From the NCBI RefSeq assembly GCF_056746865.1, contig NZ_CM163382.1: a stretch of 64,000 nucleotides of DNA. One strand, 5' to 3'. How positions within the stretch are numbered: position 1 is the first letter of the stretch; each line of letters starts with the position of its first letter. Below, piece after piece: positions 5,442 through 51,937 of the stretch. The notes under the pieces are model-generated. The model ran no database searches and was not told where the DNA came from. It saw only the letters and a list, made by a program, of their open reading frames with translations. A program made the position numbers and the translations under genes.

Positions 5442-6367
5442 TAATAAACCGAACGCCCTAACTGTTTCGTCAATTGTTCAAGGACGGCGATACCCGCGAG
5501 CGAGTTACCTGCATCATCCAGTTCCGGACTCCAGACTGCGATGGCCATTTCATGCGGAACAATCGCCACAATACCGCCACCAACGCCAGATTTCGCCGGT
5601 AGTCCCACCCGCCAGGCAAACTCCCCCGCGTTCTGGTACATACCACTGGTCGCCATCAGCGCATTAATTTGCCGCGCCTGCATTGGCGTCACCACAGGTT
5701 CATCAATATGAATAGCTTTCCCCTGATTAGCCAGAAAGACAAACGTCCGGGCCAGCTCTACACAGCTCATTTTCAGAGCGCAGTAATGAAAGTAGTTTTG
5801 CAGAACGGTTGTCACGTCATGATGGAAATTGCCAAACGACTTCATCAGCCAGGCGATAGCCGCATTTCGCGCGGAGTGTTCAAATTCGGAACGCGCTACC
5901 ACCGTATCGTAGGAAATATCAGACACACCGCTTAAGCCGCGCACGACTTCCAGCATACGTTGCCGAGGAGCGCTTAATCGCCCTTGCAACATATCGCAGA
6001 CCACCAGCGCACCGGCATTAATAAACGGATTACGCGGAATACCCTGCTCCATTTCCAGTTGCACTAAAGAATTGAACGGTGATCCAGACGGATCTTTGCC
6101 GACGCGTTGCCAGATTTCCTCTTCGGAGTAATGACGCATGGCGACAACGAGACTCAGCACTTTGGAAATAGACTGAATGGAAAAACGTTCTTGTGCGTCT
6201 CCGGCCTGAAAAAGCTGTCCGTCAACGGTACAGATAGCAATGCCCAATCGGGAACCGTCTACTGTAGCCAGCGCCGGAATATAATTCGCGACTTTACCCT
6301 GACCAATGAGCGGCCGTACTTGCCGCAAGATGTTTTCTAAAATTGCATTATCCATGGCGACTGCCAC
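5441..6367 (-). CDS. glsB: glutaminase 2
   Basis: 308-aa ORF with the serine-dependent glutaminase S-x-x-K motif (SISKV); synteny. Confidence 0.92.
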
Positions 6368-26407: not shown

Positions 26408-27427
26408 TTATTCAGAAAAAGTGAGTAAGACTTTGCAGCAATGCTTTTGATCCTGTTCAAATAAACTAATGGCATCAGCAACATGCTGGAAATCAAACGT
26501 ATGGGTAATTAGTTTTTCTGGTTTAATTAACCCTTTACTTAACCAGTCGATAACGACCGGGAATTTATTTGCATTTAAGCGTGAAGAGAAAATAGAGAGT
26601 TCTTTTCCGGTAATTCCTTGCTGAATCACTTCAGACGGTTCACTGGAGAAGCCCATCAATACAATACGTGCCGCTGGAGAAGCCAGCGTTACGGCTTCTT
26701 TCAGGATTGAAGGATGACAAGCCGCATCGATAATTAATGTCGGCTTTATGCCTTTTTCAGCGAAAATCTCGCCAAGCGGTGTCTGGCTGTTATTAATCGC
26801 CCAGTCTGCCCCGCTCTCTTTCGCTTTTTCCAGTCGTTCATCAATGCGATCGGCAACAATCACATTCTTAACGTTATAGACGCCTTTTAATACCTGAACG
26901 ATCGTCAGGCCGATTGGACCGGCACCGTAAACCAGAACGGTATCATTTTCAGTCGGTTGACCATGACCGGTAACGTTAGCCGCAATGGTAAAAGGTTCGA
27001 TCATCACCGCATATTGATCGGCCACTGCTTCAGGAATTTTCCACGCATTTTTTGCCGGCACCACGGCATATTCACTGAAACCACCGTCAGCGTGCACACC
27101 TAATACAGCCAGTGTCGTACAAACGTTCGGCTTACCTATAGAGCACGGATAGCAATGCCCACAGCTGACCACCGGATCGACAGCAACGCGTTCACCGACT
27201 CTGGCGCTTTCCACGCCTTCACCCACTGCATCAATGACGCCAAAGAATTCATGACCAATGACGCGCGGATATTTCGCAAAAGGATTATGCCCACGATAAA
27301 TATGGCTATCTGAACCACAAATTCCGGCAAGTTTCACTTTTACTCGTACTTCACCCGCTGACGGGGTGGGTATTTCGCGTTCGATAATTGCCAGTTGATT
27401 CGGTTTTTCAATTAAAATGCTTTTCAT
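26408..27427 (-). CDS. rspB: starvation-sensing protein RspB (zinc-dependent dehydrogenase)
   Basis: Start trimmed to MKSILIEK (339 aa); zinc-ADH motifs GHEFFGVI and CGHCYPC. Confidence 0.92.
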   Translation of the reverse strand: MKSILIEKPNQLAIIEREIPTPSAGEVRVKVKLAGICGSDSHIYRGHNPFAKYPRVIGHEFFGVIDAVGEGVESARVGERVAVDPVVSCGHCYPCSIGKPNVCTTLAVLGVHADGGFSEYAVVPAKNAWKIPEAVADQYAVMIEPFTIAANVTGHGQPTENDTVLVYGAGPIGLTIVQVLKGVYNVKNVIVADRIDERLEKAKESGADWAINNSQTPLGEIFAEKGIKPTLIIDAACHPSILKEAVTLASPAARIVLMGFSSEPSEVIQQGITGKELSIFSSRLNANKFPVVIDWLSKGLIKPEKLITHTFDFQHVADAISLFEQDQKHCCKVLLTFSE

Positions 27428-27438
27428 TATCTTACTCC

Positions 27439-28653
27439 TTACCAGTTCCACAGCGTGCCATCTTCCAGACGTGCGACTGGCAGATAAGCAGGTTCATAGG
27501 GATATTTCGCCGCCAGCTTTTCATCGAATTCGATGCCAAGACCCGGTTTGTCTCCCGGATGCATATAGCCGTTATCGAAAGTCCAGTTGTGCGGGAAGAC
27601 TTCAAGCATTTGTTCGGAATAACCCATGTATTCCTGGACACCGAAATTGGGGACCCACAGATCAAAGTGCAGCGCCGCAGCCATGCAGACTGGTGACAAA
27701 TCGGAAGGACCGTGTGAGCCAGTACGTACCTGATACAACGAAGCAAAATCGGCAATCCGGCGCATACCGGTAATTCCGCCTGCATGGGTCAGCGTGGTGC
27801 GGATATAATCGATAAGTTGCTCTTCAATCAGTTGCTTGCAGTCCCAGATGCTGTTGAAGACTTCACCCACCGCGATGGGTGTGACGGTATGTTGGCGAAT
27901 GAGACGGAAGCATTCCTGGTTTTCCGCAGGCGTCGGGTCTTCCATCCAGAACATGCGATAATCTTCAATGCTTTTACCAAAGCGCGCCGCTTCAATAGGC
28001 GTTAAGCGATGGTGCATGTCATGCAGCAAATGTTCATTAAAACCAAACTTGTTACGTACCGCGTCAAACAATTTCGGCATGAAATCGAGGTATTTCTCCG
28101 TCGACCACAACTGCTCTTCCGGCCACTGTCCTTTGGTTGCGGGTTCATAAGCCAGACCTTTGCCTTTCGACATGCCGTAGGTGGTTTTCATACCAGGGAT
28201 TCCGCACTGCACGCGGATGGCTTTGAATCCCAGCTCCTGATGACGGGCATAATCATCCAGAGCTTCATCAATACTGTGACCGGTGGTATGGCAATAAACC
28301 ATCACCCCTTCACGAGACGCGCCGCCGAGTAACTGGTAAAGCGGCATGTTGGCAGCTTTGGCTTTAATATCCCACAGCGCCATATCAACCGCTGAAATGG
28401 CCGACATCGTCACCGGACCGCGACGCCAGTAAGCACCTTTATAGAAAAACTGCCAGATATCTTCGATACGGTGTGCATCGCGACCAATAAGCTGCGGACA
28501 AAGGTGATCCTGCAAATAAGAGGCCACGGAAAGCTCACGTCCATTGAGGGTGGCATCCCCAAGGCCCGTAATACCGTCCTCAGTGGTGATTTTTAATGTG
28601 ACGAAATTACGCCCCGGACAGGTAACAAAAACTTCAGCCTTTACGATCTTCAT
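27439..28653 (-). CDS. rspA: starvation-sensing protein RspA (enolase-superfamily mannonate dehydratase-like)
   Basis: Start trimmed to MKIVKAEVF (404 aa); operon with rspB. Confidence 0.92.
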
Positions 28654-28858
28654 GTTCGATTCCTTGCATCGCTTGTCGTGATGCATGAAATCTACGCAAC
28701 TGAGCTACTACCATACAAGTATGAAGATCGAAAAAAGCCGGAGTGATCACAAAAAAAGGCGTATATTTGCGCCGTGAATGGTTGACAAAAGATGAAATAG
28801 AATACCTTTTGTCAGCTGACACTTCCTTGTATCTTATTGATAAAATGGATTTATGTCC

Positions 28859-29185
28859 TTACGCGCGCCCCCAGCCCGCAACAATGATCAACATGCCGCA
28901 AAGCGCAATCAACGCCCCCGTCCAGTCATAAAGACTCAGTTTCACGCCATCCACAACGCGCAGCCACATCAACGCCGTGCAGACATAAACGCCACCATAA
29001 GCCGCGTAAACACGCCCACTCGCCGCAGGATGCAACGTTAACAACCAGACAAACAGTGCCAGAGAAATCCCCGCCGGAAGCAACAGCCAGATACTGGCGT
29101 TTCGTTTTAACCACAACCAGGGCAGAAAGCATCCAATAATTTCACACAGCGCAGTAGCAAAAAATAGTAACGTTGTTTTAATCAT
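28859..29185 (-). CDS. ynfA: UPF0060-family small inner membrane protein
   Basis: 108-aa hydrophobic ORF from MIKTTLLFF; synteny. Confidence 0.85.
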
Positions 29186-29319
29186 CTTTGTCACTTATTG
29201 ACATCATGTATAGTTATAGGACGACATAATATCATCAATATAAACATCCTCCTGGTACGTTTTGCGTTCGCAGTGGATGGTGTAGAATCACCTTTAATCA
29301 TTCATACAGGGAATGAATT

Positions 29320-29661
29320 ATGAAAATTACTCTCAGCAAACGAATTGGCCTGCTCGCTTTTCTGCTGCCTTGCGCACTGGCATTGAGCACAACTGTTCAT
29401 GCCGAAACTAACAAACTGGTGATTGAGTCTGGCGACAGTGCGCAAAGCCGCCAGCACGCCGCTATGGAAAAAGAGCAATGGAATGACACGCGCAATCTGC
29501 GCCAGAAAGTGAATAAACGCACTGAAAAAGAGTGGGATAAAGCCGACGCCGCTTTTGATAACCGCGATAAATGTGAGCAAAGCGCCAACATCAATGCCTA
29601 CTGGGAGCCAAATACTTTGCGCTGCCTGGACCGTCGAACTGGCCGCGTTATTACCCCCTAA
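29320..29661 (+). CDS. ynfB: DUF1283-family secreted protein
   Basis: 113-aa ORF with an N-terminal signal peptide. Confidence 0.85.
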
Positions 29662-29695
29662 CCTGTTATTGATTTAAGGAATGTAAGGACACGTT

Positions 29696-30256
29696 ATGCC
29701 AAGCGCCCACAGTGTTAAGCTACGCCCGCTGGAGCGTGAAGATTTACGCTATGTACATCAACTCGACAATAACGCCAGTGTGATGCGTTACTGGTTTGAG
29801 GAACCCTACGAAGCCTTTGTTGAACTCTCTGATCTGTACGATAAGCATATTCACGATCAGAGCGAACGGCGCTTTGTGGTGGAATGTGACGGCGAAAAAG
29901 CCGGTCTGGTGGAGCTGGTGGAAATTAACCATGTTCATCGCCGCGCAGAATTTCAGATAATTATCTCCCCGGAATATCAGGGGAAAGGTCTGGCAACGCG
30001 TGCCGCAAAATTAGCAATGGACTATGGCTTCACCGTTCTCAATCTCTATAAGCTGTATCTGATCGTCGATAAAGAGAATGAAAAAGCGATACACATTTAC
30101 CGCAAGCTTGGCTTTACGGTTGAAGGTGAATTGATGCATGAGTTCTTTATTAATGGTCAATATCGGAATGCCATTCGCATGTGCATATTCCAGCATCAGT
30201 ATCTGGCAGAGCACAAAACACCGGGTCAGACTCTCCTGAAGCCGACCGCACAATAG
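29696..30256 (+). CDS. speG: spermidine N1-acetyltransferase (GNAT)
   Basis: 186-aa ORF recognised as SpeG; synteny. Confidence 0.93.
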
Positions 30257-30258
30257 CA

Positions 30259-30969
30259 TTAATAATAATCGATAGTATTTTTGATGGTGTAAACCCGTTC
30301 GATGGCGGGTTTTACTCCTTCATCAACAATGATTAGCTGACAGTCCACCGGATTGGCGTGACTGTCATATTCACAGCTCTGTTTTACATTACCAACTCTT
30401 TGATTATTCAGTATAGTAACCGCTGTGTAATCTAATTTTTTGATCGGGTCCGTTGATGGCGTGGCGCTAACAGATAATGTTTTGTCGTGACTTTTCGTGG
30501 TTTTACCCAGCGGATACCCCTGATCATCATAGCGATATTCCATCTGCATCTGTTTGCTGCTGGCTTTAATCACAAAGCCATTATCATCGGTTTCCCAACT
30601 CACCCCGGCAGAAGGTAATTCTGCTAGCTGGCATTTTCCCTGCAAACGAACTCTTTTCTCCAGTGTCTGGGCATCACGGTAATAATTGGCGTCCAGTACC
30701 AGGGCAACCACGGTATTATTTTCCAGATCCAGTAATTCGAGTGAATCAAAACAGCCTTCTTCCGACAAAGTCCCCGAAACACGTTTCGTCACTTCACCTT
30801 GCTCATCCATTAATGTCTGAGTGAAATCTTTTACCGGACCACGCAGCGGATCAAAATCGAATTCATTAGAGAAACTGGCCATCTCAGGGGTAAATGAAAG
30901 TGTTACCTCTGTTCGGTCACATCCTGTGAGGAATATCGCGAGTAAGCATGGCAGTAATTTGTATTTCAC
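30259..30969 (-). CDS. ynfC: UPF0257-family lipoprotein
   Basis: Probable GTG start giving MKYKLLPCLLAIFLTGC (lipobox LTGC), 236 aa; the ORF track extends it upstream. Confidence 0.8.
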   Translation of the reverse strand: MKYKLLPCLLAIFLTGCDRTEVTLSFTPEMASFSNEFDFDPLRGPVKDFTQTLMDEQGEVTKRVSGTLSEEGCFDSLELLDLENNTVVALVLDANYYRDAQTLEKRVRLQGKCQLAELPSAGVSWETDDNGFVIKASSKQMQMEYRYDDQGYPLGKTTKSHDKTLSVSATPSTDPIKKLDYTAVTILNNQRVGNVKQSCEYDSHANPVDCQLIIVDEGVKPAIERVYTIKNTIDYY

Positions 30970-31076
30970 AACAGTCACCAGAGAGTAGAGATGATTCTCA
31001 ATCATAGTAGCAAATACAGTACTTTACACGTTAAATGCTATGCTTAAAGAAGTTATCTTCGCGTAAGGAGCTTATG

Positions 31077-31382
31077 ATGAAACTCTCAACCTGCTGTGCC
31101 GCGCTTCTGCTCGCCCTCGCCTCACCCGCGGTACTCGCCGCGCCGGGATCCTGTGAGCGCATACAGAGCGATATATCACAGCGCATTATCAATAATGGCG
31201 TACCCGAAAGCAGCTTCACGTTAAGTATTGTACCCAATGACCAGGTTGATCAGCCTGATTCCCAGGTCGTCGGGCATTGCGCTAATGATACGCATAAAAT
31301 TCTCTACACCCGCACCACCAGCGGTAACGTCTCTGCTCCCGCGCAGTCTACCCAGGATGGCGCGCCTGCCGAACCGCAGTAA
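31077..31382 (+). CDS. ynfD: DUF1161-family secreted protein
   Basis: Start at MKLSTCCAALLLALASPAVLA (signal peptide), preceded by SD AAGGAG; 101 aa. Confidence 0.85.
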   Translation: MKLSTCCAALLLALASPAVLAAPGSCERIQSDISQRIINNGVPESSFTLSIVPNDQVDQPDSQVVGHCANDTHKILYTRTTSGNVSAPAQSTQDGAPAEPQ

Positions 31383-31580
31383 CACATTATCGACTGAACG
31401 CCGGATACGACACATCCGGCGATTTGAACATACAACATAATCCCACCTTATTACTCATACCCTTCTATTGATATGGATTAATAATTCTTAACCCAAAATG
31501 GGTAGACTCCCTCTATTGTTAGCGCGCTAAATATTCAATATATAAACTTTTATATAACGATAAAGATCAGGGAGTGAGTT

Positions 31581-34007
31581 ATGTCCAAAAATGAACAAAT
31601 GGTGGGCATCAGCCGCAGAACACTCGTTAAATCTACCGCGATAGGTTCTCTGGCGCTGGCTGCAGGCGGTTTTTCTTTACCGTTCACCCTGCGCAGTGCA
31701 GCGGCAGCGGTACAGCAGGCCAGCGAGAAAGTGGTCTGGGGTGCCTGTTCCGTCAACTGTGGTAGCCGCTGTGCACTTCGTCTGCATGTTAAAGATAATG
31801 AAGTGACCTGGGTGGAAACTGACAACACCGGCAACGACGAGTATGGCAATCATCAAGTACGTGCCTGTTTGCGCGGTCGCTCCATCCGTCGGCGTATTAA
31901 TCATCCCGATCGCTTGAATTACCCAATGAAACGCGTGGGCAAACGCGGCGAAGGCAAATTCGAACGGATTAGCTGGGATGAAGCCCTGGATACTATCGCC
32001 AGTAGCCTGAAAAAAACCGTCGAACAATATGGCAATGAGGCTGTATATATTCAGTACTCTTCAGGGATCGTTGGCGGCAATATGACCCGCTCTTCGCCAT
32101 CCGCCTCGGCGGTCAAACGCCTGATGAACTGCTACGGCGGTTCACTCAACCAGTATGGCTCCTACAGCACCGCGCAAATTTCCTGTGCCATGCCCTACAC
32201 CTACGGCAGTAATGATGGCAACAGCACCACGGATATTGAAAACAGCAAGCTGGTCGTGATGTTTGGTAACAACCCGGCAGAAACCCGCATGAGCGGCGGT
32301 GGCATCACTTATCTTCTTGAAAAAGCGCGCGAGAAATCGAACGCAAAAATGATTGTTATCGATCCGCGATATACCGATACAGCTGCTGGTCGTGAAGACG
32401 AATGGCTACCTATTCGCCCGGGCACCGATGCCGCGCTGGTTGCGGGTATTGCCTGGGTATTGATTAACGAAAATCTCGTTGATCAACCTTTTCTCGATAA
32501 ATACTGCGTCGGCTATGACGAAAAAACCTTACCCGCAGATGCACCAAAAAATGGTCACTATAAAGCCTATATTCTTGGTGAAGGAGACGACAAAACAGCG
32601 AAAACGCCGCAGTGGGCTTCGCAAATTACCGGTATCCCGGTGGACCGTATCATCAAACTGGCGCGTGAAATTGGCACAGCAAAACCCGCTTATATCTGCC
32701 AGGGCTGGGGACCGCAACGCCAGGCAAACGGCGAGCTGACTGCACGCGCTATTGCGATGTTGCCTATTCTGACGGGCAATGTCGGCATCAGCGGCGGAAA
32801 TAGTGGCGCGCGTGAATCGACCTATACCATTACCATAGAACGCCTACCGGTGCTGGATAATCCGGTCAAAACGTCAATCTCCTGCTTCAGCTGGACAGAT
32901 GCTATCGATCATGGCCCGCAAATGACGGCAATCCGCGACGGTGTCCGGGGCAAAGATAAACTGGATGTGCCCATTAAGTTCATCTGGAACTACGCGGGAA
33001 ATACCCTCGTTAATCAGCATTCTGACATCAACAAAACGCATGAAATTCTGCAGGACGAATCGAAATGCGAAATGATTGTGGTCATCGAAAACTTTATGAC
33101 CTCATCGGCAAAATATGCCGACATTCTGCTGCCAGACCTGATGACCGTTGAGCAGGAAGATATTATTCCTAACGACTACGCCGGTAACATGGGATATCTC
33201 ATTTTCCTCCAGCCTGTCACCAGCGAAAAATTCGAACGCAAACCGATTTACTGGATCCTGAGTGAAGTCGCGAAACGTCTTGGACCTGAAGTCTATCAAA
33301 AGTTCACTGAAGGTCGCACTCAGGAACAATGGTTACAACATCTGTACGCCAAAATGCTTGCCAAAGATCCGGCGTTACCGTCTTACGACGAATTAAAAAA
33401 AATGGGTATCTATAAGCGTAAAGATCCCAATGGTCATTTTGTCGCCTACAAAGCATTTCGTGACGACCCCGAGGCAAATCCACTTAAAACGCCTTCCGGT
33501 AAGATTGAAATTTACTCCAGCAAGCTGGCGGAAATTGCCCGTACCTGGGAACTGGAAAAAGATGAAGTGATAAGCCCACTGCCGGTTTATGCCTCAACCT
33601 TTGAAGGCTGGGACTCCCCTGAACGTAGTACCTTTCCACTGCAACTGTTTGGTTTCCATTACAAATCCCGTACTCACTCGACCTACGGCAACATTGATGT
33701 CCTGAAGGCAGCCTGCCGTCAGGAAGTGTGGATCAACCCTATAGATGCACAGAAACGTGGGATTGCCAACGGCGATATGGTGCGGGTGTTTAACCATCGT
33801 GGCGAAGTTCGGCTACCAGCCAAAGTGACACCACGCATTCTCCCTGGGGTTAGCGCTATGGGCCAGGGAGCCTGGCACGAGGCCAATATGTCTGGCGATA
33901 AAATCGACCATGGCGGCTGTGTGAATACGCTAACCACTCTGCGCCCTTCACCACTGGCGAAGGGAAACCCGCAGCACACTAATCTGGTCGAGATCGAAAA
34001 AATATAA
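31581..34007 (+). CDS. ynfE: Tat-exported molybdopterin oxidoreductase catalytic subunit (DMSO-reductase family, DmsA paralog; selenate reductase)
   Basis: 808 aa; twin-arginine motif SRRTLVKS; N-terminal cysteine cluster CSVNCGSRC; molybdoenzyme domains. Confidence 0.93.
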   Translation: MSKNEQMVGISRRTLVKSTAIGSLALAAGGFSLPFTLRSAAAAVQQASEKVVWGACSVNCGSRCALRLHVKDNEVTWVETDNTGNDEYGNHQVRACLRGRSIRRRINHPDRLNYPMKRVGKRGEGKFERISWDEALDTIASSLKKTVEQYGNEAVYIQYSSGIVGGNMTRSSPSASAVKRLMNCYGGSLNQYGSYSTAQISCAMPYTYGSNDGNSTTDIENSKLVVMFGNNPAETRMSGGGITYLLEKAREKSNAKMIVIDPRYTDTAAGREDEWLPIRPGTDAALVAGIAWVLINENLVDQPFLDKYCVGYDEKTLPADAPKNGHYKAYILGEGDDKTAKTPQWASQITGIPVDRIIKLAREIGTAKPAYICQGWGPQRQANGELTARAIAMLPILTGNVGISGGNSGARESTYTITIERLPVLDNPVKTSISCFSWTDAIDHGPQMTAIRDGVRGKDKLDVPIKFIWNYAGNTLVNQHSDINKTHEILQDESKCEMIVVIENFMTSSAKYADILLPDLMTVEQEDIIPNDYAGNMGYLIFLQPVTSEKFERKPIYWILSEVAKRLGPEVYQKFTEGRTQEQWLQHLYAKMLAKDPALPSYDELKKMGIYKRKDPNGHFVAYKAFRDDPEANPLKTPSGKIEIYSSKLAEIARTWELEKDEVISPLPVYASTFEGWDSPERSTFPLQLFGFHYKSRTHSTYGNIDVLKAACRQEVWINPIDAQKRGIANGDMVRVFNHRGEVRLPAKVTPRILPGVSAMGQGAWHEANMSGDKIDHGGCVNTLTTLRPSPLAKGNPQHTNLVEIEKI

Positions 34008-38632: not shown

Positions 38633-38825
38633 GATCACCGTAATATTGCCGGATGGTGTCGATTAGGCGCAATTCGGCAATAATAGGTTACAGTGTCACG
38701 TTTTTTATCTCTTAAAGCACGCACTGCTTTTGCGTCTGGCTTCTTTTGCCGCAAAATAGTCGCCCGTATTTCATTGCCCATTTCTGCTCATGCATCATCT
38801 ACACATCTATCCGGATCTGCGCACT

Positions 38826-40082
38826 ATGTTCCGCCGTCTGCTTATCGCAACAGTCGTCGGTATTCTTGCGGCCTTTGCCGTTGCCGGGTTTCGTCATGCA
38901 ATGCTGCTACTGGAGTGGTTGTTCCTCAATAATGACTCGGGCAGTCTGGTCAATGCAGCGACAAATCTTTCCCCCTGGCGACGGCTGCTAACTCCGGCGC
39001 TCGGCGGACTGGCGGCGGGTTTGTTGCTGATGGGCTGGCAGAAATTTACCCAGCAACGCCCTCATGCGCCGACCGATTACATGGAAGCGTTGCAAACCGA
39101 TGGGCAGTTTGATTACGCAGCAAGCCTGGTTAAATCCCTTGCCTCTCTGCTGGTAGTAACCAGCGGCAGTGCAATTGGTCGCGAAGGTGCGATGATTCTT
39201 TTAGCTGCCCTTGCCGCCTCCTGTTTTGCCCAACGTTTTACGCCACGCCAGGAGTGGAAATTATGGATCGCCTGTGGAGCTGCGGCGGGAATGGCTGCGG
39301 CCTATCGCGCCCCGCTTGCTGGCAGTTTATTTATAGCCGAAGTGCTGTTTGGCACTATGATGTTGGCCTCTCTCGGCCCGGTGATTATTTCCGCCGTCGT
39401 GGCATTGCTGGTTAGCAATCTGATTAATCATAGCGACGCGTTACTCTACAGTGTACAACTCTCAGTGACGGTTCAGGCTCGTGACTATGCGCTGATTATC
39501 AGTACAGGTGTGCTGGCAGGTCTGTGCGGACCACTGTTGTTAACGTTGATGAACGCCTGTCATCGTGAATTTGTAAGTCTCAAGCTTGCGCCGCCCTGGC
39601 AACTGGCACTGGGCGGGTTGATCGTGGGTCTGCTTTCCCTGTTCACACCTGCAGTGTGGGGCAACGGCTATAGCACCGTACAATCCTTTTTAACCGCTCC
39701 GCCACTGTTAATGATCATTGCCGGGATCTTCCTCTGTAAACTGTTTGCCGTGCTGGCGAGTAGTGGTTCTGGCGCGCCCGGTGGTGTCTTTACACCGACG
39801 CTATTTATCGGTCTTGCCATTGGCATGTTGTATGGTCGTAGCCTGGGATTATGGTTCCCTGATGGCGAAGAAATTACGCTTTTACTCGGATTGACCGGGA
39901 TGGCGACACTGTTGGCGGCAACCACGCACGCGCCGATTATGTCGACGTTGATGATATGTGAAATGACCGGGGAGTATCAGCTACTCCCCGGTTTATTGAT
40001 TGCCTGCGTAATTGCGTCGGTAATTTCGCGGACGTTACACCGTGACTCTATCTACCGCCAGCACACTGCGAAGCATAGCTAA
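38826..40082 (+). CDS. clcB: ClC-family voltage-gated chloride channel / H+-Cl- antiporter
   Basis: Start at [11 protein letters not shown] (418 aa); ClC selectivity-type motifs GSAIGREGA and [10 protein letters not shown]. Confidence 0.9.
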
Positions 40083-46330: not shown

Positions 46331-46660
46331 TCAGGCAAGTTTCACCATGATCATTCCAGCCAACAGCAAGACCAGGCCAATCCAGCCTTTACGATTTAAC
46401 CGTTGACCAAACAAGATCCAACCTGCGGCTAACGTGGCGGCAATACCAAACCCGCCCCACAATGCATAAGCGACAGACAAGTCGATCCCTTTAACGGCCT
46501 GAGAAAGCGCACTAAAGGCAGCCAGCACCGCCGCCAGGGAGAGCAAGCCAAATATTTTGCGACGAAAGCCGTCAGAAAATTTCAAAAAGACGTTAGCAAC
46601 GATTTCCAGCACGATTGCCAATGCCAGCCAGGCGGCGTGAACCCATTCAAACTGCGCCAT
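46331..46660 (-). CDS. mdtI: SMR-family spermidine exporter subunit MdtI
   Basis: 109-aa ORF with four TM helices; overlaps the mdtJ 3' end. Confidence 0.92.
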
Positions 46661-47012
46661 GGTTCACCTCCAGTTCAGGTTTACGCGCTTTACGGGTACC
46701 TGATTTGATCAATACAATCCCGGCGACCAGGGTGGTTAACCCGGCAATTTTCATCAGCGATAAACTTTCGTCGAATAACAAAACACTAAACAAGGTAATA
46801 AATAAAATACCGATACCTTCCCACAGCGCATAAGCCACGCCTAAGGCGATCTTTTTAACGGCGAAAGAGAGAAATATATACGACAGAGAAATCATCACCA
46901 GCATTAAAATAAAGCCGCCATTTCCCTCACTGACGCTCGCCCATTTCATAGACAGCGTACCGGTAATTTCTGTAGCAATAGCCAGACCTAATAAAATCCA
47001 ATAAATATACAT
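46647..47012 (-). CDS. mdtJ: SMR-family spermidine exporter subunit MdtJ
   Basis: 121-aa ORF with four TM helices; 14-bp overlap with mdtI. Confidence 0.92.
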
Positions 47013-51477: not shown

Positions 51478-51937
51478 TCATGTACGAGCTAAATGTTACT
51501 CCGTTAAAATAAATTAGTAACAAACGCCCTATAACGTACTGAAAATTATGCCTGTGATCTAGCGCCAAAAATCAGTATTTCGGCGTGAACTCGCAAAATA
51601 TTAACGATTCAGCCGTGATAGTGGGATAAACACCTTAGAACGCCGGATAAAGACTGATAATTGTCTTCGACGGTCAGGTAAAACGAGACATCGCCCCAGT
51701 ACGAATCACTACTTAACATTAAATTAACTTATACAATTCAGTTGCTTCAGTAGTATTGATGCTGATACGGCTGTTTTTTAAGCATAGACGGTCATTTGAG
51801 CAGGATTAAAATTGGTTTAAGGAATGTGATATGAAAAATGACGCAGACAGTTACACCGTTTAAATGCAATAATCAGCCACGTTTCTCGTTAATAACAATA
51901 CCAGTACCTGGTTTGCGCAAGGCGAAGGATTATTTTT

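Follow-up and report, generated by a model that had tools for sequence, protein, structure and literature searches.

Four genes for small exported or membrane proteins, ynfA, ynfB, ynfC and ynfD, are packed around the spermidine acetyltransferase gene speG in Escherichia coli, and the locus raises the question of whether they act together. The first-pass annotation of the 64,000-nucleotide stretch analyzed here (the window) had reported these five genes with their positions, orientations, signal peptides and LTGC lipobox, and the open reading frames, RefSeq annotation and Pfam matches bear out all of it. The locus is probably a vertically inherited part of the Enterobacteriaceae core chromosome, composed of four separate transcription units that do not make up a system; the sole deeper link joins ynfB to ynfD, which appear to be an old pair that was later split.

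An ordinary core-genome locus

The arrangement, in which ynfA diverges from ynfB-speG, ynfC faces speG and ynfD points away from ynfC, is an E. coli core locus, carried by 5396 of 5426 complete genomes of the species, and several E. coli chromosomes match positions 28859-31382 at 100% identity. The five proteins match Pfam models far above cut-off (UPF0060, DUF1283, GNAT, UPF0257 and DUF1161, in gene order), and NCBIfam equivalogs match YnfA, DUF1283, SpeG and YnfC. Searches for PDB relatives by sequence, with single sequences and then with profiles, return nothing significant; no Rfam RNA family lies within 27000-33000, and consensus promoter and terminator scans of the region do not rise above shuffled sequences.

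The next 32 kb hold 31 genes, and 17 of them, judged by product names, likewise have membrane or exported products; at this local density of about 50%, four or more envelope genes among five are expected with a probability of about 0.26. The genome-wide rate of envelope genes is taken here to be 0.35, an assumed value, at which the probability is about 0.05 per five-gene window, so that each genome should contain many such windows. The clustering of envelope proteins is no greater here than by chance. The locus is known, ordinary and already annotated E. coli core genome, with one modest new lead.

The ynfB-speG operon

The genes ynfB (29320-29661, plus strand) and speG (29696-30256, plus strand; spermidine N1-acetyltransferase) are the first and second genes of an operon (PMC3213128), and RNA folding finds no structure in the 34-nt spacer between them. 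YnfB is a DUF1283 protein (Pfam PF06932, 2.4e-45, 153 bits against a cut-off of 25) that has been detected by proteomics; its signal peptide (29320-29403) ends, by its sequence, in VHA followed by E, and its charged mature part of 85 residues carries two cysteines, C85 and C102, that are invariant in alignments even in relatives of 41-63% identity. SpeG matches NCBIfam NF011709 at 1.5e-122, along with a GNAT model of Pfam. A Sec-exported, presumably disulfide-bonded YnfB is thus co-transcribed with the cytoplasmic SpeG, of which it would have no need; Kluyvera, Phytobacter massiliensis and Pseudenterobacter lack speG, and there ynfB abuts ynfC.

The 134-bp divergent region between ynfA and ynfB-speG (29186-29319) is conserved. 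Within it, GTGTAGAAT is nearly invariant upstream of ynfB in a ten-genus alignment, and a conserved -10-like TAGAAT at 29283-29288 is assigned to ynfB; the consensus promoter scan at this site is not above chance. At the other end of the operon, speG and ynfC face each other with 2 bp between their stop codons in E. coli; in many species the stops overlap, and the two transcripts must therefore overlap. ExcludonFinder lists speG/ynfC as an excludon (PMC12288877). The locus resembles excludon pairs in being convergent with overlapping transcripts, but differs from them in that ynfB, not speG, converges on ynfC where speG is missing, and in that antagonism here is putative.

The DUF1283-DUF1161 pair

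Outside Enterobacteriaceae, the DUF1283 gene is followed directly, on the same strand, by a gene for DUF1161, the family of YnfD, with neither speG nor ynfC between them. This adjacent tandem pair, a new observation, is present in Morganella, Proteus and six metagenomic lineages, eight distinct loci that form a small sample counted with kinship ignored. The intergenic gaps are 17-82 bp, and 259 bp in locus L095; the short gaps in most of these loci suggest an operon. Since the pair occurs there without speG and ynfC, the E. coli arrangement looks derived: speG and ynfC would have been inserted into an ancestral ynfB-ynfD pair, and ynfA added upstream. Insertion is preferred to deletion by parsimony, over few lineages and with no species tree.

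A tentative reading, for which we would not claim an even chance, is that YnfB and YnfD each supply half of a single ancient function in the periplasm, encoded by an ancestral operon and possibly assembled into a disulfide-stabilized heterocomplex; the operon would have been split by speG and ynfC, leaving speG on the ynfB promoter and ynfD on a stress promoter of the sigma-S/Cpx type. It is also possible, and again somewhat short of probable, that the adjacency reflects inherited gene order only, with no functional relation between the proteins. Several tandem loci have the ydfG...bioD/mlc context, and also ynfL/ynfM, in common with E. coli, consistent with inherited order. So is the far wider distribution of DUF1161: Pseudomonas, Budvicia, a Providencia plasmid and loci L098 and L104 have it without DUF1283, and no DUF1283 remnants were found alongside these solitary genes. 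The separate promoters and different stress responses of ynfB and ynfD in E. coli fit inherited order as well. What argues against mere inheritance of order is that the pair persists, in most cases tightly spaced, among varied neighbors: MFS/cytochrome c peroxidase (L096), an unknown 790-aa gene (L101), MFS/Usp (L106) and rspA/ynfE (L095). In addition, all DUF1283 genes examined, save those in truncated loci and in two rearranged ones, are followed on their own strand by a gene for DUF1161.

Neither YnfB nor YnfD contains an enzymatic motif by Pfam, where the DUF models alone match. The DUF1471 family, which includes YhcN and BhsA, comprises small stress-induced periplasmic proteins of E. coli. 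YnfB and YnfD are like them in having mature parts of fewer than 100 residues, in Sec export and in responding to stress, the last shown for ynfD.

ynfD and its control region

The ynfD gene (31077-31382, plus strand) encodes a DUF1161 protein (Pfam PF06649, 6e-19, 68.6 bits against a cut-off of 25) composed of a signal peptide (31077-31139) whose sequence ends in VLA followed by A, a 58-aa domain (31140-31313) and a disordered tail. Two cysteines of the mature part, C5 and C47, are shared by 90% or more of the 72 sequences in the family alignment, and the AF2 model (pLDDT 82, about 90 in the domain) consists of a helix and three strands. Giant PKD-repeat/T9SS proteins that repeatedly match YnfD residues 40-87 were set aside as spurious; Pfam identifies them as PKD_5/PKD_6 and not as DUF1161, and what matches is a short motif whose score is summed over repeats.

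A conserved 107-bp control region (30970-31076) is common to the divergent ynfC and ynfD, and its conserved block (31001-31047) holds a direct repeat and a sigma-S-type -10 element. The latter, GCTATGCTTAA at 31037-31047, lies 30 nt before the ynfD ATG and matches exactly the sigma-S -10 consensus KCTAYRCTTAA, of which the window contains two instances where 0.2 are expected. About half of the species loci have it in front of ynfD, and it stays with ynfD where insertions split ynfC from ynfD, as they do in about ten loci. A gSELEX peak of RpoS falls between ynfC and ynfD (PMC5493296). With both a -10 match and binding of the RpoS holoenzyme, the predicted ynfD promoter is of the sigma-S type.

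The direct repeat AATAC-N5-TTTAC (31013-31027), which on the minus strand reads GTAAA-N5-GTATT, is by counts against shuffles unique in the window as an exact repeat and conserved across genera, and in a scan of 77 loci its distance to each of the two genes is mostly constant. The minus-strand GTAAAGTACTGTATT agrees with the CpxR box GTAAA-N5-GTAAA at 8 of 10 positions; the window has 1.25 sites per kb that differ from the box at two positions, and the CpxR site is a candidate. The sigma-S-type -10 and the conserved CpxR-like repeat of ynfD, within a region shared with ynfC, are new predictions from the DNA sequence.

Co-expression under stress, which the first-pass annotation had put forward as a check, is not what the transcripts display: in one RNA-seq data set, inhibition of LolCDE raises ynfD 4.2-fold and 6.9-fold, as against 1.5-fold and 1.7-fold for ynfC and 1.4-fold and 1.5-fold for ynfB (PMC5105897, supplement). 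The same paper labels ynfD as CpxA-regulated (PMC5105897). A reading in which CpxR, acting at the shared repeat, drives ynfC and ynfD together as an envelope-stress pair is nonetheless unlikely. The label, the 8 matching positions, the fixed spacing and, in locus L030, duplication of the repeat on either side of an insertion all speak for it; the weak response of ynfC where ynfD rises 4- to 7-fold and the frequency of two-mismatch CpxR sites speak against it, as do the other genes induced beside ynfD in that table, which we take to be typical RpoS genes. On the favored reading, YnfD is a small periplasmic DUF1161 protein that is expressed from a predicted promoter of the sigma-S type and rises under envelope stress.

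Between ynfD and ynfE, a stable plus-strand hairpin (31399-31421) begins 17 nt past the ynfD stop codon; in RNA folding it has -13.7 kcal/mol and z = -4.3, with none of 200 shuffles as stable, and it is probably a terminator or a 3' stabilizer. The terminator scan missed it because its U tract is weak.

YnfC, a putative inner-membrane lipoprotein

The ynfC gene (30259-30969, minus strand) encodes a UPF0257 lipoprotein (Pfam PF06788, 442.5 bits against a cut-off of 25; NCBIfam NF002798, 418 bits against 263). Its lipobox LTGC (30919-30930) belongs to a pattern, L-[AST]-[GA]-C, that is present in the species orthologues, and the next codon (30916-30918) specifies Asp at position +2 after the lipobox cysteine. 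This Asp is found in nearly all full-length orthologues (CDN, CDD, CDE, CDK, CDR), though Kluyvera georgiana has CE and one truncated copy has CN, and it predicts retention in the inner membrane by Lol avoidance, with the protein facing the periplasm. Going by the Lol-avoidance literature, Asp-Arg, the pair in E. coli YnfC, may retain a lipoprotein less strongly than Asp-Asn or Asp-Asp does.

The structural model, of moderate confidence (pLDDT 70.6), is a porin-like beta sheet or barrel; YnfC would be a large protein of this kind with two predicted disulfides, most likely one that binds a ligand or a partner. This model and the conservation of Asp+2 are new for YnfC, at the level of prediction. 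The closest known systems are the Bacteroides 'porin-like' soluble lipoproteins (PDB 4ghb, 3tzg) and the Tubby-like Pfam clan CL0395; membership in the Tubby C-terminal-like clan, defined by a 12-stranded barrel around a central C-terminal helix, did not hold up for YnfC. A relation to YD/Rhs-repeat proteins was likewise rejected: the sole match, to Tre23, has an E-value of 0.2 and is not significant, Pfam RHS_repeat gives no match at E<=10, and YnfC, unlike Rhs/YD-repeat shells, has no internal repeat, its hhalign HMM self-comparison being empty.

YnfA, an SMR-like exporter

The first-pass annotation held that none of the four proteins has an assigned function, which is outdated for YnfA. The protein has been described as an SMR-like efflux protein in Shigella flexneri (PMC9295541), and its family, UPF0060, has been linked to thallium(I) resistance by an RB-TnSeq phenotype (bioRxiv 10.1101/072470). 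In Shigella, a ynfA knockout lowers MIC90 2-8 fold, with restoration by complementation, reduces ethidium and acriflavine transport, and makes the cells more sensitive to cationic dyes and to polymyxin B, to the latter by 8-fold (PMC9295541).

The E. coli gene (28859-29185, minus strand) encodes a 108-aa inner-membrane protein that matches UPF0060 (Pfam PF02694, 2.3e-48, 163.3 bits against a cut-off of 24.9) and the NCBIfam equivalog NF002586 (160.7 bits against 114). Its GRAVY is 1.17, with only three hydropathy peaks above 1.6 in a 19-residue window; the published TMHMM prediction is four helices (PMC9295541). Glu15, in helix 1, is invariant across 29 species. YnfA resembles SMR proteins such as EmrE and MdtJI in its length of about 108 residues, its putative four-helix topology, an invariant Glu in what would be membrane helix 1 and the loss of ethidium/acriflavine efflux and of resistance to cationic compounds in the Shigella knockout. 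By profile, YnfA falls outside SMR: it does not match the Pfam SMR model even at E<=10, and its hhalign alignment to EmrE, collinear over 57 columns at 32% identity with a pairwise E-value of 0.0018, has a probability of only 15%, short of significant similarity. A published tree sets it apart as a subfamily of its own (PMC9295541). A further difference from SMR is that metal cations, e.g., Tl(I), rather than drugs are suggested by the phenotype of its family and by the gene contexts; YnfA homologues do occur on plasmids inside metal islands, and distant ones belong to metal-efflux clusters that Phaeobacter and Hymenobacter plasmids carry. YnfA would be a four-helix SMR-like exporter of small cations, be they toxic cations and dyes or metal ions.

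These properties invite the idea that ynfA and ynfB-speG handle polycations together, SpeG neutralizing spermidine and YnfA exporting polyamines, acetyl-polyamines or other polycations. The cationic sensitivities of the Shigella mutant, the conserved divergent promoter region shared with ynfB-speG and the presence in the same window, 15 kb away, of the SMR pair MdtJI, an annotated spermidine exporter with a related job, would fit such a unit. It is improbable all the same: either gene can do without the other, speG having stayed in Trabulsiella where ynfA is gone and ynfA in Kluyvera where speG is gone, speG is inactivated in Shigella where ynfA still functions (PMC3213128, PMC9295541), the distant homologues in metal-efflux operons are not beside polyamine genes, and the conserved family phenotype concerns thallium(I).

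Gene order and gene loss

The order rspA-ynfA-ynfB-speG-ynfC-ynfD-ynfE is kept in the 80 Enterobacteriaceae species loci sampled, from 299 species with DUF1283. The flanking genes rspA and ynfE, unrelated to the cluster, are as syntenic as ynfA-ynfD. Besides the losses of speG and ynfA described above, ynfC and ynfD are missing from two loci (L042 and L066), and the losses of speG, of ynfA and of ynfC/ynfD are independent of one another. Homologues of YnfA, YnfC and YnfD/DUF1161 outside Enterobacteriaceae reside in unrelated gene contexts; apparent plasmid copies of YnfC and YnfD were rejected, the matches being chromosomes filed as plasmids.

That all four genes, with or without speG, form one coordinated envelope-stress or polyamine module is largely refuted and highly improbable: the tight packing, the order conserved across Enterobacteriaceae and the conserved cysteine pairs in all three exported proteins (YnfB, YnfC and YnfD) are outweighed by equally conserved flanks, independent losses, unrelated distant contexts, unlike responses of ynfB, ynfC and ynfD to LolCDE inhibition in the one data set, and the local density of envelope genes. 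The first-pass annotation was right to see no coordinated four-gene system. If taken to mean that the sequence holds no link at all between these genes, that judgment is incomplete in four respects: the ynfB-speG operon, the speG/ynfC convergence, the ynfC/ynfD control region and the ynfB/ynfD tandem outside Enterobacteriaceae.

Significance

The main result is a low rating of the locus, which is textbook E. coli core genome. For individual genes, the annotation of YnfA should drop "function unknown" in favor of an SMR-like exporter of cations, whose link to metal resistance is conserved, and the prediction of YnfC as a periplasmic lipoprotein anchored in the inner membrane, whose soluble fold is porin-like and unusual, shows where experiments on it should begin. 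The DUF1283-DUF1161 pairing offers a concrete and cheap hypothesis for two orphan y-genes, which Proteus and Morganella still have adjacent, and would also show how speG came to follow a gene for a periplasmic protein.

Gene Content of the Locus

Five genes lie at 28859-31382, exactly as the first-pass annotation had read them: ynfA (28859-29185, minus strand; UPF0060/YnfA), ynfB (29320-29661, plus; DUF1283), speG (29696-30256, plus; SpeG, GNAT), ynfC (30259-30969, minus; UPF0257/YnfC lipoprotein) and ynfD (31077-31382, plus; DUF1161). The family assignments come from Pfam and NCBIfam (Pfam for ynfD), with scores of all five products well over the cut-offs. The signal peptides claimed for YnfB (ending …TTVHA, followed by ETNK) and YnfD (…AVLA, followed by APGSC) and the YnfC lipobox LTGC can all be read from the sequence. 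Several E. coli chromosomes are 100% identical to the locus DNA, which is matched in 5396 of 5426 complete E. coli genomes. The locus is real, correctly described and already known, and its interest is low; the clustering of envelope proteins singled out earlier is unremarkable: judged by product names, membrane or exported products are also encoded by 17 of the 31 genes that make up the following 32 kb.

Upstream of rspB, a Qin-like prophage region occupies the window from 1 to about 26000; in 118UI, an annotated comparison strain, an integrase adjoins rspB. Compared position by position, 118UI and the window show 19735 mismatches in the first 32 kb, so the window has either another variant of the prophage or an indel; the downstream 32 kb are near-identical. 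There, clcB (38790-40082) is annotated as a pseudogene with an internal stop, the annotation being that of 118UI.

Absence of a Four-Gene System

Scanning a single genome for each species finds DUF1283 in 299 species; the best 80 loci, all from Enterobacteriaceae, were kept. In these best 80 of the 299 species loci, the order rspA< ynfA< >ynfB >speG <ynfC >ynfD >ynfE is near-universal and takes in rspA and ynfE, unrelated flanking genes that are equally syntenic. The locus members drop out independently of one another: Kluyvera, Phytobacter massiliensis, Pseudenterobacter and one further genome lack speG, and there ynfB directly adjoins ynfC; Trabulsiella lacks ynfA, which one Citrobacter has as a pseudogene; several of the compared loci have a truncated ynfC or none; and insertions of 0.3-3.4 kb split ynfC from ynfD in about ten. 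Outside Enterobacteriaceae, YnfA, YnfC and YnfD homologues are found in unrelated neighborhoods. In one RNA-seq data set, a LolCDE inhibitor raises ynfD 4.2- and 6.9-fold, with changes of 1.5- and 1.7-fold for ynfC and 1.4- and 1.5-fold for ynfB (PMC5105897 supplement).

Together, the independent losses, the unrelated flanks and outside contexts, and the unequal inhibitor responses essentially refute the four-gene idea: there is no coordinated four-gene system. This bears out the first reading, which saw nothing to indicate one and named a lack of co-regulation and of a link common to the four as what would speak against it; essentially this is found.

Individual cases of decay include an in-frame stop in ynfA of one Citrobacter amalonaticus genome, a shortened ynfC in both Phytobacter massiliensis and Trabulsiella guamensis, and the absence of ynfC from Escherichia sp. 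MOD1-EC7003; among the relatives' loci, single-species decay is listed at L026 7524-7841, L031 8668-9090, L034 9138-9665 and in L002.

[quoted passage not shown] Because of this pattern, and because ynfB is kept where speG is absent, YnfB does not depend on SpeG. Regulation of ynfB by GadE/GadX has been reported, and the protein has been detected in Klebsiella envelope/exoprotein and UPEC proteomes. Strongly hydrophilic, with a GRAVY of -1.4, mature YnfB is 85 aa long and contains two Cys residues that are invariant; RNA folding finds no structure in the 34-nt ynfB-speG spacer. speG and ynfC are convergent, their stop codons 2 bp apart, and the pair appears in an excludon listing.

YnfA as a Probable Cation Exporter

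The statement that none of the four proteins has an assigned function is outdated by published work on YnfA efflux and a UPF0060 phenotype. Loss of ynfA in Shigella flexneri lowers dye efflux, and resistance is regained by complementation (PMC9295541); for UPF0060, Price et al. (bioRxiv 10.1101/072470) describe a thallium(I) phenotype that is conserved. YnfA homologues occur in 379 plasmid records: in one, from Phaeobacter, the gene overlaps the HTH regulator gene upstream of it and is followed by two cation transporter genes, and in another, from Hymenobacter, it has a CzcA-type RND pump on one side and a heavy-metal P-type ATPase on the other. Profile searches do not place YnfA formally in the SMR family, although its helix-1 Glu15 is invariant. 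YnfA is most likely a small cation exporter. The SMR pair mdtJI, annotated as a multidrug/spermidine exporter, lies at 46331-47012 (minus strand), about 15 kb from speG and SMR-like ynfA; its coordinates are those of 118UI, which differs from window 32001-64000 at only 4 bases.

Control of ynfD

Within the 107-bp spacer between ynfC and ynfD, alignment reveals a block (31001-31047) that is near-invariant from Escherichia to Atlantibacter. The sigma-S -10 consensus is KCTAYRCTTAA, and GCTATGCTTAA at 31037-31047 matches it exactly; the window has two matches against 0.2 expected. This -10 keeps with ynfD where insertions part ynfC and ynfD, and agrees with the genes listed beside ynfD among those induced by the LolCDE inhibitor, which we take to be of the RpoS type. 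It also agrees with an RpoS gSELEX peak between ynfC and ynfD (PMC5493296). The window's only other exact match, TCTATGCTTAA (51778-51788, minus strand), lies upstream of pntA in the spacer between that gene and ydgH.

The same block contains a direct repeat, AATAC-N5-TTTAC (31013-31027), whose other strand, GTAAA-N5-GTATT, agrees with the CpxR box at 8 of 10 positions and which, in the majority of 77 scanned loci, keeps a fixed distance to each of the two genes. Control by CpxR through this candidate repeat is plausible, and sigma-S/Cpx-type control of ynfD is a useful prediction of the analysis, as is an inner-membrane location of YnfC. In Enterobacteriaceae bacterium RIT714 (locus L030, 9696-10057), the ynfC-ynfD gap is 453 bp and the repeat occurs twice, with one copy at the usual spacing to either gene, as if the insertion had duplicated the control region. 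A stable hairpin lies 3' of ynfD; Rfam detects no RNA family in the region. The sole YnfC relative seen outside Enterobacteriaceae (32% identity; L091 4923-5639) is on a 352-kb Chimaeribacter arupi plasmid, adjoining an ABC substrate-binding protein gene and with no other ynf gene near.

Pairing of DUF1283 and DUF1161

In Morganella morganii, a DUF1161 gene follows the DUF1283 gene by 19 bp on the same strand with nothing between, and Proteus mirabilis has the same tandem. Among nine further DUF1161 representatives, the tandem is found in six lineages (L095, L096/97, L099, L101, L102/103 and L106/107), the two genes being 17-82 bp apart except for 259 bp in L095, which reads rspA< >ynfB >ynfD >ynfE without ynfA, speG and ynfC. 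Across these lineages the tandem's flanks vary: rspA and ynfE-like; MFS and cytochrome c peroxidase; adh_short and an unknown 790-aa gene; adh_short with bioD and ROK; or adh_short with MFS and Usp. A DUF1161 gene lies downstream of every DUF1283 gene seen, truncated or rearranged loci excepted; DUF1161 is also found solitary, and a search near such genes reveals no DUF1283 remnants. The DUF1283 core and both Cys residues are kept down to 41% identity. Morganella-type DUF1283 proteins (L092 4574-4927, L096 3610-3972, L099 463-768) have at the N-terminus a further Cys pair, C-x-x-G-S-T-C-V, which proteins of the E. coli type lack.

Elsewhere, P0387 (Candidatus Electrothrix, 307 aa) consists of four DUF1161 domains in tandem and P0419 (234 aa) of three, with a Cys pair in every domain, which shows that DUF1161 is able to function as a repeated module. 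In the Pseudomonas fulva group (L082-L084), luciferase-like oxidoreductase, OsmC and aminopeptidase genes are flanked by two DUF1161 paralogues (2423-2647 and 6001-6255) that lie 3.4 kb apart. Proteins of giant size, 1000-6300 aa (P0373, P0376, P0380, P0390, P0402 and others), each match residues ~40-87 of YnfD as many as 34 times; three scanned with Pfam and one read directly are PKD-repeat proteins. They share with YnfD a short motif, T-V-x-P...V-x-Q-P...V-V-C-x-G, at repeat boundaries, and this resemblance is probably spurious: Pfam calls no DUF1161 in those scanned.

Read most economically, ynfB and ynfD formed an ancestral unit that was later split, speG and ynfC having been inserted between the two genes, and ynfA added upstream, in Enterobacteriaceae. 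YnfB and YnfD may also be linked physically or functionally. In the literature searched, no paper names ynfB with ynfD, or DUF1283 with DUF1161. The YnfB-YnfD pair is a new, modest and testable lead.
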